Shown: one piece after another, positions 13,653 to 18,630 of the stretch
Layout of the letters: each line of letters starts with the position of its first letter
Numbering within the stretch: position 1 is the first letter of the stretch
Source of the DNA: Coxiellaceae bacterium
GTDB taxonomy: Bacteria; Pseudomonadota; Gammaproteobacteria; Coxiellales; Coxiellaceae
Direction: 5' to 3'
Assembly: GCA_029212885.1 (NCBI GenBank)
Contig: JARGPC010000007.1
Location: forward strand, 4,652 to 68,651
Length of the DNA: 64,000 nucleotides
Notes under the pieces: model-generated
The model's input: the letters and a program-made list of their open reading frames with translations, nothing else
Databases searched by the model: none
What the model was told of the DNA's origin: nothing
Position numbers and translations under genes: made by a program

Positions 13653-14495
13653 CTATCGTTGGCTAACCAATTCACATACTGCCGATTTTATTGCTTGAAT
13701 CGAACGAATCTGCCGATTCTCAACCCGATATACCAGACTGATGTTATCCAAATAAAACAGGTCAGGCTTAAAATTCACTAACGGTGCATGTGAATTAGCA
13801 ATCGTTTGCGGTATCACTGCAACACCCGTTTTTTGCGCAGCTAATTCAGCCAGAAATAGTAAACTGTCACTCGACAGCAATCTCATGTCACCACACGATT
13901 GCTTCAACTTCGCAATAAGCACTTGTGATTGAATCAACTCCGGATCACACAGCAATGTCATGTCCTTATCCACACAGTAATCTTTATGATGCCAAAAGCC
14001 AATCCGGTCATCGCGAATTTTATGAATCACTAAATCAGGATGATTCAATGGATTCACTACCAAACCTATGTCTATGCGACCTGCGATGATGCCTTCATTT
14101 ATCTCTCTGGATAAACCATGAATAAACTTTATATTTAACTTCTTATTTTCTATCAGCAATGATGGCAAGGCCTGAGGCAAATGATACGAAGCCACTGCCG
14201 AATGACAGCCAAAAACAATATGACCAGCAATCTCCGTATGCACTTCGTTAACACTTTTTTTAACATCACCCCAATACTGCAACAACTGTTTCGCTTGCCG
14301 CAACAAACAATGCCCACCAGGCGTTAGCGTCATTCCAGTTTTATGGCGATTAAACAACGAAACACCCACTTCAATTTCTAACCTTTTTATACTCATGCTC
14401 AATGAAGGTTGGCTGAGACCTAAAGACTCAGCAGCACGAGACATTGATTGCTTTTCTGCAACCTCAATAAAATGAAGCAAATGAGTAGAGCGCAT
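13653..14495 (-). CDS. LysR-family transcriptional regulator (divergent from the isonitrile cluster; PtxR-like position)
   Basis: N-terminal HTH (SMSRAAESLGLSQPSLSMSIKRLE) followed by a LysR substrate-binding domain. Confidence 0.85.
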   Translation of the reverse strand: MRSTHLLHFIEVAEKQSMSRAAESLGLSQPSLSMSIKRLEIEVGVSLFNRHKTGMTLTPGGHCLLRQAKQLLQYWGDVKKSVNEVHTEIAGHIVFGCHSAVASYHLPQALPSLLIENKKLNIKFIHGLSREINEGIIAGRIDIGLVVNPLNHPDLVIHKIRDDRIGFWHHKDYCVDKDMTLLCDPELIQSQVLIAKLKQSCGDMRLLSSDSLLFLAELAAQKTGVAVIPQTIANSHAPLVNFKPDLFYLDNISLVYRVENRQIRSIQAIKSAVCELVSQR

Positions 14496-14579
14496 ACCCT
14501 TTATCCATAGTTTTTTTATATAACAGCGATAGAGTGTAACCTATTTATCCTATAACTGCACCCACGTATAGTAGCCAAC

Positions 14580-15488
14580 ATGAATACCACACAACACATT
14601 AGCCAACTCATCATGAAACTCAGTTACTGCATAGACACTGAAAACAGTGCTAACTGTACGTCATGCGAAAAAAGACTCGCTGAATACATCCATCATTTTA
14701 CTGACACCAATAAACCACTGCAGTTTATCTTGCCCGGATTTCCTGCCAAATCCGCTAACCGCAACAAAACGCTCTCAGCCTTACCTGATCTTGGCGAAAC
14801 ATTAGGACTAAAACGATTAAGTGATTTAATACACCAAATACAACAATGCTACACACCCGGAGCACAACTAGTCATATGCTCCGATGGACTCGTCTTTAAT
14901 GATTTAGTAAAAGTTAGTACACACGATGTTGAACAATATCAGCAGGCATTACGCAAGCTGTGTGACCACCTATCATTTAAGCACATTAGCTTTTACCGCT
15001 TATCCAATGCATTTCCTCAGAGCAACACAGACAGTAAAAGACAATTATTGATATCCCAATACGCACGGGACATAGCAACAATACGTGAAAACATACTAAG
15101 CGATAACGATGAACGATTAACATTCAATGGCATACACCGCTTTATATATGAAGACTTACGGCACTTAACAAGCCAGCAATCCAATAATCAAATAAAAAAA
15201 TTAGCTAAAGTAATTAGCTACCAAGTCATACAACGCTCACATGCTTGGAGTGCCCTAATCGCTGAAAAATTCCCACACGCCATACGCCTATCAATACACC
15301 CCCACCTTTGCAAAAGCAATAAAATTAGCATTAAGTTGATTGAAGGTGCAGACAATTGGGCGACGCCCTGGCACAACGTTACCGTAAAAACGCAACAAGG
15401 ATTTAAACTGATAAAGAAGCAACAGGCAGATAATCTTGGCGCTACGCTTCACCATCCTGGCACACAAGAAGCACACTATGTACTATAA
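14580..15488 (+). CDS. isnA: Isonitrile (isocyanide) synthase, PvcA/IsnA (DIT1_PvcA) family
   Basis: Conserved blocks PGFPAKSANRNK (cf. PvcA SGFPFKSPNPEK), PGAQLVICSDGLVFNDL, RLSIHPH and TPWHNV. Confidence 0.8.
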   Translation: MNTTQHISQLIMKLSYCIDTENSANCTSCEKRLAEYIHHFTDTNKPLQFILPGFPAKSANRNKTLSALPDLGETLGLKRLSDLIHQIQQCYTPGAQLVICSDGLVFNDLVKVSTHDVEQYQQALRKLCDHLSFKHISFYRLSNAFPQSNTDSKRQLLISQYARDIATIRENILSDNDERLTFNGIHRFIYEDLRHLTSQQSNNQIKKLAKVISYQVIQRSHAWSALIAEKFPHAIRLSIHPHLCKSNKISIKLIEGADNWATPWHNVTVKTQQGFKLIKKQQADNLGATLHHPGTQEAHYVL

Positions 15489-16200: not shown

Positions 16201-16201
16201 T

Positions 16202-17404
16202 ATGACCACTTCCTTATTCACATTAAAAAAAACCTTAACGCCACAGCAATTTTCAACTGCACTTTCTGATATGGGCGATATTTTTTGGTGGCAGCCAGGC
16301 CAATTCTGGTGTATCACATCCTATGAAATAGCCAAAATTCTTCTCACCGGGAGTAGCACAACTTGTGATCGGTCACCCTTTTTTATATCTCGCATGCCCA
16401 ATATCGACCTTGCTTTATTGCCCGACTTTTTCAATGTTGTTAAACGCATGATGGTAATGCGTGATAACAAATTACATCAGGATTCTCGCCGCATCTGCTA
16501 TCACGGTTTTGGCAACAAACAAATTACAGCACTCAGACCTAAAATAGAACAAATTGTCGATGCTTTATTAGCACAACTGCCTCCCTCTGGGGAATTTGAC
16601 TTTTGCAGTCAATTTGCTGACATCATACCAATGAAAACACTGGCCGATTTTTTTGCTATACCTGAAAGCGATCGCAGCACCTTTGTCTCACACGCAAAAA
16701 CAATGACAGCCTTTTTTGGCGGCGCGTCTGAGTATCGCAATGAAGATGCCATTAACGTAAACCATGCAGCAAAAGAATTAAATGCTTATTTCAAAGATCT
16801 GTATAAGACCAGAAAAAAAAATCCGCAAGATGACTTTTTTAGTGACCTCATTCAGCAACAAAAGCATTTTGATCTCGATGAAGACGACGTGATTGCGCAA
16901 GCAATAATGATGTGGGTGGCAGGCATGGTAACCACTTCAGACCAAATGGCAAATAACTTTTATACATTACTCAATGACTTCCCTGCTCACACCAAACAAC
17001 TTCAAAATGATGAGCAAACCATCAATACCATACAAGAATGCAATAGACTTGATCCCGCCGTTACCTTTACTTTTCGACTAGCCTGTAAAGATATCAAGAT
17101 TCAACAACATACCATCAAAAATGGTCAAACAATCTTTATCTCAAACCATGCCATTAATCGTGACCGTCGAGTCTATGCACAACCACACACCATTACCCCA
17201 TCTCACAGCGCAAAACATTTTTCATTTGGTATGGGAAGCCATTTTTGCATTGGCGCAAAATTAGCGATGATGGAAATGCATATTGCATTTCAACAGCTGA
17301 CAAGAAAATATAAAAAGCTATCCATCCTAGAAAGTGAACGACTACACTACAGCTTAAGCTTCTCTGGATTCAGCCAAATTATGACCGCTTATGATTCACG
17401 GTAA
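16202..17404 (+). CDS. Cytochrome P450
   Basis: Heme-binding signature FSFGMGSHFCIGAKLA and an EXXR-like CNRLDP. Immediately follows isnB (2 bp gap). Confidence 0.85.
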   Translation: MTTSLFTLKKTLTPQQFSTALSDMGDIFWWQPGQFWCITSYEIAKILLTGSSTTCDRSPFFISRMPNIDLALLPDFFNVVKRMMVMRDNKLHQDSRRICYHGFGNKQITALRPKIEQIVDALLAQLPPSGEFDFCSQFADIIPMKTLADFFAIPESDRSTFVSHAKTMTAFFGGASEYRNEDAINVNHAAKELNAYFKDLYKTRKKNPQDDFFSDLIQQQKHFDLDEDDVIAQAIMMWVAGMVTTSDQMANNFYTLLNDFPAHTKQLQNDEQTINTIQECNRLDPAVTFTFRLACKDIKIQQHTIKNGQTIFISNHAINRDRRVYAQPHTITPSHSAKHFSFGMGSHFCIGAKLAMMEMHIAFQQLTRKYKKLSILESERLHYSLSFSGFSQIMTAYDSR

Positions 17405-18630
17405 GGCAACATCAATACACCCGCCACAACCATGCCTATAACTGCGAGCACCATTGGCAAACTCACCGCATCACGTGTAAACGGACCAACAGCAAATGAT
17501 ACAATGGCAAATGCCAGCGCCATAATTGAACCGGTAACACCCATTACCCAGCCCTGCTCATCACTGCTAACGCGGTTGGAAAAGATCGTCAAAATTGTCG
17601 AGTAAGCATTCGCTACAGTAACACCAACAAAGAAATTCATAATCCAGCTGGTGGTAATATCATGCGTCCAAGTAATCACAGCCATAAACACAGCTGCCAA
17701 TACAAACCCTATAGCCACTGTCCATTTTAAACCTAACAGCCTTGTGGCACCATCCACCAAATAGCAGCCCACCGCAAAACCCAATGCCATGTCCGCCAAA
17801 AACCACGACGTCCAGGTTTCGTTATAACCGTATCGATCAAACATAAACATCGAGATAAATGAGAAGTAATTACTCCAACCAAGAATAAACACCAGCAAAA
17901 CCAAAGACAAATAGCGAATACGCTTATGCTGAAACGCCGAGATAAAAATCTGAATCGCATGGTGCAACTTAATATGAACTTTACCTGTACGATTAAAGGT
18001 CTCATCAAACGAAAACCATAATATAATGGCATTCGCCAATGAAATAAGTGCTGCAAAATATAACGGTGTCGAGAAATTAAACCATGACACCAAGTTACGC
18101 GCGGTTAATAGGCCACCAAAAATGGGGCCAATAACAAAGCCGACCGAGACTGCTAAAAGGATTAAACTGATATTACGCGCTTTATGCTCTTCAGTACTCA
18201 CATCCACAATCGCCGCTTGCGCAATCGGCTGACTACCGGCCGTAAAGCCAGCAATCACACGACCAACGATCAATAGCGTTAAACTGCCAAACGGGATAGC
18301 AATTGCTGACAACAAATAACCAACAAAAGCGCCCAACAAACAAATCATTAGCGATTTTTTACGCCCTACCATATCAGACAAATCACCCAATATCGAAGCA
18401 CCAAAAAACCAACTCAGCATAAAAACACCAACAGTAATGCCATACATCACACCGCGCCAAGCTTCACTGTGCTGCACAACAAATCCTGATTTTGGATCTA
18501 CAATCAAAGCATTAAGCACAGGAAACAATAAACCCAAACCCATACCATCAATCAAAATGACCAGAAATAATGGCGCTAAATGCCAAATTTTACTATTTTC
18601 ACTTTTCTCAATTTTTGTGTTCATAATCAA
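17389..18630 (-). CDS. MFS transporter (drug/metabolite efflux), likely exporter for the cluster product
   Basis: 12-TM profile with MFS motif A-like GRKKSLMICLLG. Convergent with the P450 gene and overlaps it by 16 bp. Confidence 0.85.
   Translation of the reverse strand: MIMNTKIEKSENSKIWHLAPLFLVILIDGMGLGLLFPVLNALIVDPKSGFVVQHSEAWRGVMYGITVGVFMLSWFFGASILGDLSDMVGRKKSLMICLLGAFVGYLLSAIAIPFGSLTLLIVGRVIAGFTAGSQPIAQAAIVDVSTEEHKARNISLILLAVSVGFVIGPIFGGLLTARNLVSWFNFSTPLYFAALISLANAIILWFSFDETFNRTGKVHIKLHHAIQIFISAFQHKRIRYLSLVLLVFILGWSNYFSFISMFMFDRYGYNETWTSWFLADMALGFAVGCYLVDGATRLLGLKWTVAIGFVLAAVFMAVITWTHDITTSWIMNFFVGVTVANAYSTILTIFSNRVSSDEQGWVMGVTGSIMALAFAIVSFAVGPFTRDAVSLPMVLAVIGMVVAGVLMLPYRES

Follow-up and report, generated by a model that had tools for sequence, protein, structure and literature searches.

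The closest described counterpart of the locus analyzed here is the isnA-isnB pair of Legionella (Tobias et al. 2016, PeerJ, Fig. 3L; pvcAB, lpp0236-0237, in L. pneumophila), which is reported to be 'always associated' with a helix-turn-helix protein and a cytochrome P450 (PMC5126622). In L. pneumophila pvcAB is reported to be iron-regulated and to be induced in sessile or biofilm cells (PMC5835138, PMC4256840). Related genes stand in the pvcABCD operon of Pseudomonas aeruginosa, whose expression is iron-responsive, in the rhabduscin clusters (isnA-isnB-glycosyltransferase) of Xenorhabdus and Photorhabdus, and in the cyanobacterial AmbI1-3/WelI1-3 loci that provide the indolyl vinyl isonitrile of the hapalindoles. 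A PvcA-family enzyme also works with a P450 in fungal xanthocillin biosynthesis (XanB and XanG) and in yeast (DIT1 and DIT2). We have analyzed a locus of this kind in a 64,000-nucleotide stretch from a Coxiellaceae bacterium (assembly GCA_029212885.1, contig JARGPC010000007.1, positions 4,652 to 68,651; hereafter the window). It contains genes for a LysR-type regulator, an IsnA/PvcA-family isonitrile (isocyanide) synthase, an IsnB/PvcB-family Fe(II)/2-oxoglutarate (2OG) dioxygenase, a cytochrome P450 and a transporter of the major facilitator superfamily (MFS).

The four-gene unit and its relatives

An earlier reading of the DNA alone (the sequence-only reading) had predicted these five open reading frames (ORFs), and all five were confirmed in position and strand (Table 1). 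The first four match the Legionella locus in family, order and orientation. The locus is a Coxiellaceae member of the known Legionella-type LysR/isnA/isnB/P450 family, and its architecture is not new. We consider it very probable that it is a conserved, LysR-regulated isonitrile operon in which a P450 carries out the tailoring. The Legionella orthologs share 40-46% (PvcA), 38-46% (PvcB) and 46-50% (P450) identity with the window proteins, and the order regulator-isnA-isnB-P450 was matched in 20 of the 20 Legionellaceae loci, that of L. parisiensis being checked ORF by ORF. What differs from Legionella is the surroundings; the flanking genes for the MFS transporter, for CopA and a cupredoxin, and for several orphan proteins are specific to the Coxiellaceae genome. 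Even the nearest metagenomic relatives are only about 50-62% identical to the window proteins.

The loci used for comparison, 79 in number, came from a search with a PvcA alignment in which each GTDB species was represented by a single genome, and isnA-isnB-P450 triads were called in these by tblastn with the window proteins. A colinear triad is present in 31 of the 79 genome loci, comprising the Legionellaceae (Legionella, Fluoribacter and metagenome-assembled genomes, MAGs), two gammaproteobacterial MAGs and more distant bacteria. Outside the Legionellales and these two unclassified MAGs the triad occurs at nine loci (L027, L031, L037, L050, L068, L071, L074, L076 and L078), which derive from Bdellovibrio bacteriovorus, Bacteriovoracaceae, Bdellovibrionales, Oligoflexales and one Elusimicrobia MAG. 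With the exception of the Elusimicrobia MAG these lineages are predatory or host-associated. The same unit is found in the three closest metagenomic relatives (L081-L083). Identity to the window P450 is 54-62% in the closest metagenomic relatives and 37-43% in the predatory lineages, on either side of the Legionella values; the P450 orthologs listed, at 44-62% identity, include named proteins of Legionella, Fluoribacter and Aquicella (Coxiellaceae). The sequence-only reading had thought a new P450-tailored isonitrile likely. For the cluster itself novelty cannot be upheld, since the unit is found throughout the Legionellaceae loci and in Bdellovibrionota, Oligoflexales and Elusimicrobia, and was published in 2016 (PMC5126622).

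Every ORF within 4.5 kb of the triad was clustered for 35 P450-linked loci. Four families recur, PvcA, PvcB and P450 in 35/35 each and LysR in 29/35, and no other; the remaining neighbors reflect lineage-specific synteny. In neighbor-joining trees, calculated without bootstrap, all 35 P450-linked dioxygenases fall in a single split that takes in one extra leaf (L010), and the P450-linked synthases come close to this, with 34 of 35 together and five extra leaves among them. From the four recurring families and these splits it follows that the four-gene unit is an old and coherent module. The extra leaf L010 is a 6.5 kb contig of a gammaproteobacterial MAG. Its dioxygenase falls in the P450-linked clade (signature HDY..R), but no P450 gene lies downstream, and the P450 may have been lost secondarily.

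The biosynthetic genes are tightly packed. The start of isnB overlaps the isnA stop codon (15486-15488) by 11 nt, and the ATG of the P450 gene at 16202 lies 1 nt after the isnB stop codon (16198-16200), so that isnA, isnB and the P450 gene form a tight operon. The coupling of synthase and dioxygenase noted in the sequence-only reading is thus real, as is the placing of a P450 where PvcCD or a glycosyltransferase would stand in the classical clusters. Among the relatives, there is an 11-nt overlap in L081 and a 7-nt overlap in L041, and the genes are adjacent in L082. The synthase and P450 sequences are identical to proteins that NCBI annotates from a Coxiellaceae MAG, and they also occur on Logan contig L001, with the gene order of the window.

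Comparison with P. aeruginosa pvcABCD reveals adjacent PvcA-type synthase and PvcB-type desaturase genes in both, with a LysR-family regulator beside the operon. However, in the window a P450 gene occupies the place of the PvcC/PvcD flavin monooxygenase, and the shared enzymes are 40% (PvcA) and 34% (PvcB) identical. No HpaB/HpaC-type match was found among the window ORFs scanned, and isnB is followed by the P450 and MFS genes. Given the lack of PvcCD and a score below the PvcA equivalog cutoff (see below), the locus is not of the pvcABCD type. The regulators are also placed differently. PtxR, described in the sequence-only reading as divergent from the pvc operon, does belong to the LysR type and activates pvc, but its gene is not head-to-head with pvcA; ptxR flanks the pvcD end of the operon, according to the content of plasmid pAH54 (PMC3639982), whereas the window LysR gene is head-to-head with isnA. 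Several sources still label homologs 'pyoverdine biosynthesis protein PvcA', a name under which these genes would make the pyoverdine chromophore. This is hardly credible, as the pvc genes have been reassigned to paerucumarin (PMC3639982) and there are no nonribosomal peptide synthetase or pyoverdine-biosynthesis families among the window ORFs scanned. The rhabduscin loci have in common with the window the IsnA/IsnB pair, the metal ligands and Arg265 of the dioxygenase (31% identity for IsnB). No glycosyltransferase gene is present in the cluster or its flanks, and the locus is therefore not of the rhabduscin type either.

Synthase, dioxygenase and precursor

The assignment of the synthase is not in doubt at the level of the family. 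IsnA matches the PF05141 (DIT1_PvcA) profile over positions 1-267 of 273 with 276.3 bits, the gathering score being 26.4, and it aligns with the solved structures of PvcA (3e59, E = 8.4e-62) and 9dhm (2.8e-55). Against the NCBIfam model TyIsonSynPvcA (NF045653) it scores 221.5 bits, under the equivalog cutoff of 600. On these scores it is a member of the PF05141 family and not a PvcA equivalog. We collected 940 homologs; an identical sequence carries the NCBI label isocyanide synthase family protein. All 45 columns that are invariant in 26 aligned homologs are retained in the window protein. A separate feature is the cysteine pair C26-x-x-C29 (14655-14666) near the N-terminus, nearly invariant in the same 26 homologs; the matches to the Pfam domain and to the solved PvcA structure both begin downstream of it.

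The start of IsnB is most likely the ATG at 15478, giving 240 aa, rather than the TTG at 15436, in agreement with the gene caller on Logan contig L001. Its best matches in the Protein Data Bank (PDB) are PvcB (3eat, 2.2e-33) and PIsnB (7tcl, 3.9e-33), the next being CarC at 2e-10. The facial triad is intact, with H69 and D71 in an HWD motif (15682-15690) and H213 (16114-16116), and R227 is the substrate/2OG arginine. These four residues align with His101, Asp103, His250 and Arg265 of PIsnB. The core of the sequence-only reading, an isonitrile cluster with a PF05141 synthase and a dioxygenase that keeps its HxD...H ligands, is therefore borne out on both of the points that it had named as able to refute it. 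Judged by homology the two enzymes can be assigned securely at the level of the family, IsnA to the formation of an isonitrile on an aromatic amino acid and IsnB to desaturation between C-alpha and C-beta.

A pathway can be proposed on this basis. IsnA would convert an aromatic L-amino acid, tyrosine or tryptophan, into the alpha-isocyano acid, with the isonitrile carbon coming by family precedent from ribulose-5-phosphate. The dioxygenase would desaturate the C-alpha/C-beta bond, yielding a vinyl isonitrile if decarboxylation occurs and an isocyanoacrylate if it does not. The P450 would then oxidize the desaturated intermediate using electrons from a ferredoxin system; no gene for such a system was identified next to the cluster. 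The product would be a small, secreted isonitrile that binds metal or heme.

To consider the precursor we compared both enzymes with Tyr-type references (3e59, 9dhm, 3eat and 7tcl, although the deposited title of 9dhm is no more specific than 'L-tyrosine/L-tryptophan isonitrile synthase family protein') and with cyanobacterial loci that include hapalindole-type clusters. IsnA is 40% identical to PvcA (3e59) and 37.5% to 9dhm, compared with 41-46% for the cyanobacterial loci. For IsnB the values are 34% (PvcB, 3eat), 31% (PIsnB, 7tcl) and 39-42% respectively. The AmbI1-3/WelI1-3 enzymes are thus the most similar of any from a characterized pathway. In an alignment of 78 homologs the pocket motif of IsnB reads HWDGAF (HWDGAFH, 15682-15702) as in AmbI3/WelI3-type loci, with which it also shares a WxTPWHNV motif, whereas the solved Tyr-type PvcB and PIsnB read HWDGMY. 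The aromatic-pocket residues Met105 and Tyr106 of PIsnB are consequently replaced by Ala-Phe in the window and cyanobacterial enzymes. Both enzymes are slightly closer to the cyanobacterial Trp-type than to the solved Tyr-type, which suggests a weak lean towards tryptophan. We attempted to call the precursor from identity, trees and pocket residues, and none of these was decisive. There are also clear differences from the cyanobacterial loci, which have two tandem synthase genes and no P450 next to I3, and are described as lying inside large terpene-indole clusters (PMC4236562). The residue before the conserved arginine is Gln in the cyanobacterial enzymes, while the P450-linked dioxygenases have Arg or Lys there, together with His or Tyr at the position of PIsnB K107.

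Regulator, P450 and the fit of the pathway

LysR does not reach the cutoff of any NCBIfam equivalog model. Of the 35 P450-linked loci, 29 have a LysR-family ORF no more than 4.5 kb away, in 25 of these upstream and on the opposite strand. Full-length orthologs with 39-45% identity adjoin the cluster in L008, L009, L020, L037, L044 and L051, and also in L082 and L083; in L. parisiensis (L041) the LysR gene is likewise full-length and divergent. Because it is conserved in this way we count the LysR gene as part of the cluster, as the sequence-only reading had proposed. The start codons of isnA and LysR are divergent and 84 bp apart, and the DNA between them presumably holds overlapping promoters and a LysR operator, the usual arrangement in the LysR family. 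By analogy with PtxR, an activator of pvc (PMC3639982), the protein is probably a pathway-specific regulator of the biosynthetic operon; it would activate the operon, with the product or the metal status as a possible signal. There is a dyad, ATAG-N8-CTAT, within the 84 bp. By eye, a TACCTA-like string recurred in the regulator-isnA intergenic regions, and this candidate for a conserved operator was dropped.

The P450 has a heme-binding motif FGMGSHFCIG, with C349 as the heme ligand, and an ExxR motif of ECNR, both kept across 118 orthologs. An AF2 model has the full P450 fold (mean pLDDT 88.7); its best Foldseek match is P450 BioI (TM 0.85), and the best PDB sequence match is PksS (4yzr, 9.4e-38). 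Identity to solved structures is 20-25%, the nearest being generic CYP107/109-like enzymes and BioI. An oxidative tailoring role is likely from these features. The reaction could not be read from either search, as a CYP107/109/BioI-like fold does not discriminate between reactions. The I-helix (16913-16945, residues 238-248) reads AGMVTT. In all 118 orthologs the acid of the acid-alcohol pair (AGx[D/E]T) is Val or Ile, the consensus being AG[QM][VI]TT[TS]DQ, and this suggests atypical proton delivery. Replacement of the acid is atypical for standard P450 hydroxylases.

What might such an enzyme do? Our tentative preference, held with some reserve, is that it couples two aromatic isonitrile units oxidatively. 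We favor this because the other known partnerships of a PvcA-family enzyme with a P450 are proposed to couple; XanG and Dit2 are both proposed to dimerize tyrosine-derived units (PMC5974471). XanB also has the dioxygenase function, fused to its synthase, whereas in the window these are separate genes, and the regulators differ. The locus is not of the xan/DIT type; its likeness to those systems may lie in how the P450 step works rather than in family membership. The P450 could instead be a ring hydroxylase that replaces PvcC/PvcD in an otherwise identical operon, leading to a monomeric catechol or coumarin isonitrile for iron handling that resembles paerucumarin. We regard this as only slightly less likely than coupling. 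The gene does sit where PvcCD stands in pvcABCD, the nearest neighbors of the protein are mostly hydroxylases (PksS, CYP106/109, EryF and Vdh), and L. pneumophila pvcAB is reported to be regulated by iron (PMC5835138). Yet neighbors at 20-25% identity do not predict a reaction, the I-helix lacks the acid expected of a standard hydroxylase, and the P450 partners Dit2 and XanG are the proposed coupling enzymes noted above.

The DIT system raises a further question, whether the end product is an isonitrile at all. Yeast Dit1, a member of the PF05141 family, acts with the P450 Dit2 to give N,N-bisformyl dityrosine (PMC5974471, PMC13005658), and PIsnB and PvcB are described as accepting N-formyl tyrosine (PMC9467999). 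An N-formyl product, for example an envelope component resembling bisformyl-dityrosine, is nonetheless very improbable here. The synthase is accompanied by a co-evolving desaturase of the PvcB/IsnB type, the mark by which bacterial isonitrile pathways are known and one that yeast DIT as described does not have (PMC5974471). A stable isonitrile has, moreover, recently been detected among the products of a Dit1-type enzyme (PMC13005658).

Several observations weigh against the proposed operon and its coupling P450. Some concern the first two steps. The identities and the Ala-Phe pocket do not decide between tyrosine and tryptophan. Nor is the mode of desaturation given by the known markers, in which K/R with N/H denotes the PIsnB type (vinyl isonitrile) and L with C the PvcB type (isocyanoacrylate) (PMC9467999, Kim et al. 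2022). At the positions equivalent to K107 and N188 window IsnB has His and Ala, which matches neither class, and its P450-linked homologs have H, Y, K or F with A or G. As a forecast of vinyl isonitrile versus isocyanoacrylate we found the rule ambiguous and set it aside; the cyanobacterial loci, with Ala at the N188 equivalent, misfit as well, and the authors of the rule report no change of selectivity when one of these residues is mutated by itself (PMC9467999). The tyrosine-derived vinyl isonitrile of the sequence-only reading is accordingly not supported, given the slightly Trp-type enzymes, the HWDGAF pocket and the ambiguous His/Ala markers.

Other observations concern the later steps and their control. 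The nearest neighbors of the P450 are hydroxylases and BioI, not coupling enzymes, and its best matches among solved structures are bacterial CYP107/109-like proteins; coupling is proposed by analogy with Dit2 and XanG. Isonitriles are strong heme ligands, and the P450 would have to turn over a substrate that ligates its heme. Regarding control, a scan of 11-19 kb for promoters and terminators gave counts at the level of shuffled sequence, and 6-mer enrichment across 33 loci gave only AT-rich words, confounded by relatedness, and supports no operator. Finally, we found no report of a product of the LysR/isnA/isnB/P450 family in the searchable literature, some key older papers being beyond its reach, and chemistry beyond the family-level activities is therefore something that we infer.

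Flanking genes and the wider window

Table 1. The cluster and other features, in window coordinates
Feature	Position	Strand	Length and matches
Orphan ORF	9785-11200	+	471 aa; Pkinase 1.4e-3; LanL kinase region 1.7e-8
Copper-translocating P1B-type ATPase CopA + cupredoxin	11193-13585	-	CopA 677 aa; TIGR01511 594.6 bits (cutoff 397)
LysR-type regulator	13653-14495	-	280 aa; HTH_1 8.3e-20, LysR_substrate 6.7e-16 (Pfam)
Divergent intergenic region, LysR start to isnA start	14496-14579		84 bp
isnA/pvcA-family isonitrile (isocyanide) synthase	14580-15488	+	302 aa; PF05141 E = 3.8e-82
isnB/pvcB-family Fe(II)/2OG dioxygenase	15478-16200	+	240 aa; TauD PF02668 1e-33
Class-I-type bacterial cytochrome P450	16202-17404	+	400 aa; PF00067 6.4e-24
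MFS (DHA1/Tet-like) efflux transporter	17389-18630	-	411-413 aa; MFS_1 6.6e-34
Orphan ORF	18812-21790	+	992 aa; no family match
Orphan ORF	21847-22731	+	294 aa
Zinc alcohol dehydrogenase (quinone-oxidoreductase-like), second MFS transporter, Crp-family regulator	22808-25697	-	
Giant ORF	37435-47802	-	3455 aa; no Pfam match at E<=1e-4

The MFS gene is convergent with that of the P450, their 3' ends overlapping by 16 nt, and its closest NCBIfam models are efflux pumps of the Tet(A/B/C) type, all far under cutoff. The sequence-only reading had made it the exporter of the pathway. In position and orientation that description is correct; membership of the cluster is not supported by conservation. 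None of the 79 genome loci has an ortholog adjoining the cluster, the nearest approach being a 27%-identical MFS protein encoded about 5 kb away in L068, and in L081-L083, where other genes were called downstream, none was called next to the cluster. Unrelated MFS genes lie near 6 of the 35 linked loci. Taking MFS as about 2% of genes, which is our own rough figure, seven MFS-flanked loci in 36 within 4.5 kb is roughly what chance would give. The pump may export the product in the Coxiellaceae genome. That it is a dedicated exporter, and that the five genes make up a new, P450-containing version of the pvc/isn clusters, we find unlikely; the convergent overlap, the drug-efflux type and the MFS genes at six other loci speak for it, and the missing orthologs, the chance-level frequency and the prior existence of the P450 variant against.

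On the other side of the cluster, directly downstream of LysR on the same strand and separated from it by 67 nt, are the genes for CopA and a 120-aa Cupredoxin_1 protein, which overlap by 4 nt. CopA has the CPC, YN and MxxSS motifs, lacks an HMA domain and begins MSSCCH. This position raises the possibility of a copper module, in which an isonitrile chalkophore works with CopA and the cupredoxin-like protein under the same LysR, and the fungal xan isocyanides are described in a preprint as binding copper (bioRxiv 10.1101/2020.07.23.217810). We consider the idea improbable. The two genes do not neighbor the cluster in the related genome loci, the adjacency being confined to the Coxiellaceae genome. 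The connection was drawn after the fact, and within the 67-nt gap CopA is provided with a ribosome-binding site of its own and with a promoter-like site. Two distant CopA-like matches were found among the related loci, more than 7 kb away and both in loci that have no P450. As candidate conserved neighbors, CopA, the cupredoxin, the MFS transporter and the 992-, 294- and 471-aa ORFs were all rejected, as none is conserved in the 79 genome loci.

The three orphan ORFs that flank the cluster (Table 1) have no relative in those 79 loci, a comparison that does not include L081-L083. The 471-aa protein gives only a faint kinase-like signal, and the 294-aa protein appears to be membrane-associated from its sequence. 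About 4 kb downstream of the cluster the dehydrogenase, second MFS and Crp-family genes follow one another on one strand, and no link between this run and the cluster was found. The giant ORF could code for an orphan effector or for a protein of the cell surface. Elsewhere the window is ordinary chromosome, with genes for TyrRS, PBP1, DAHP synthase, UbiA, ABC transporters and a secretin; scattered among them are large orphan ORFs such as are common in Legionellales. As possible signs of a mobile island we looked at tRNA genes, of which the window has none, and at GC content, which shows only a mild dip (0.40-0.41, compared with about 0.44); neither points to a recent transfer. The + strand has a negative GC skew across the window (1-64000), which is strong (-0.14 to -0.29) in the segments 1-27 kb and 42-64 kb and weaker (-0.04 to -0.10) in the segment 27-42 kb. 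As it does not change sign, no origin or terminus is apparent.

The window thus adds no new kind of system. It provides a divergent Coxiellaceae member, useful for comparative work, of a family that extends from the Legionellaceae loci retrieved and Aquicella (Coxiellaceae) to predatory Bdellovibrionota. One could combine a coupling P450, which lacks the I-helix acid throughout the family and would have to cope with a heme-ligating substrate, with the copper genes, so that two units would be joined into a xanthocillin- or hazimycin-like di-isonitrile that serves as a copper chalkophore with CopA and the cupredoxin under a shared LysR. We hold this to be distinctly improbable; if true, the way in which intracellular and predatory bacteria (Legionellales and Bdellovibrionota) handle copper would be tied to the chemistry of isonitriles. 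Whatever its structure, the identity of the product would fill a gap in the secondary metabolism of the Legionellales, and would show how a P450 processes a class of substrate that normally poisons heme.

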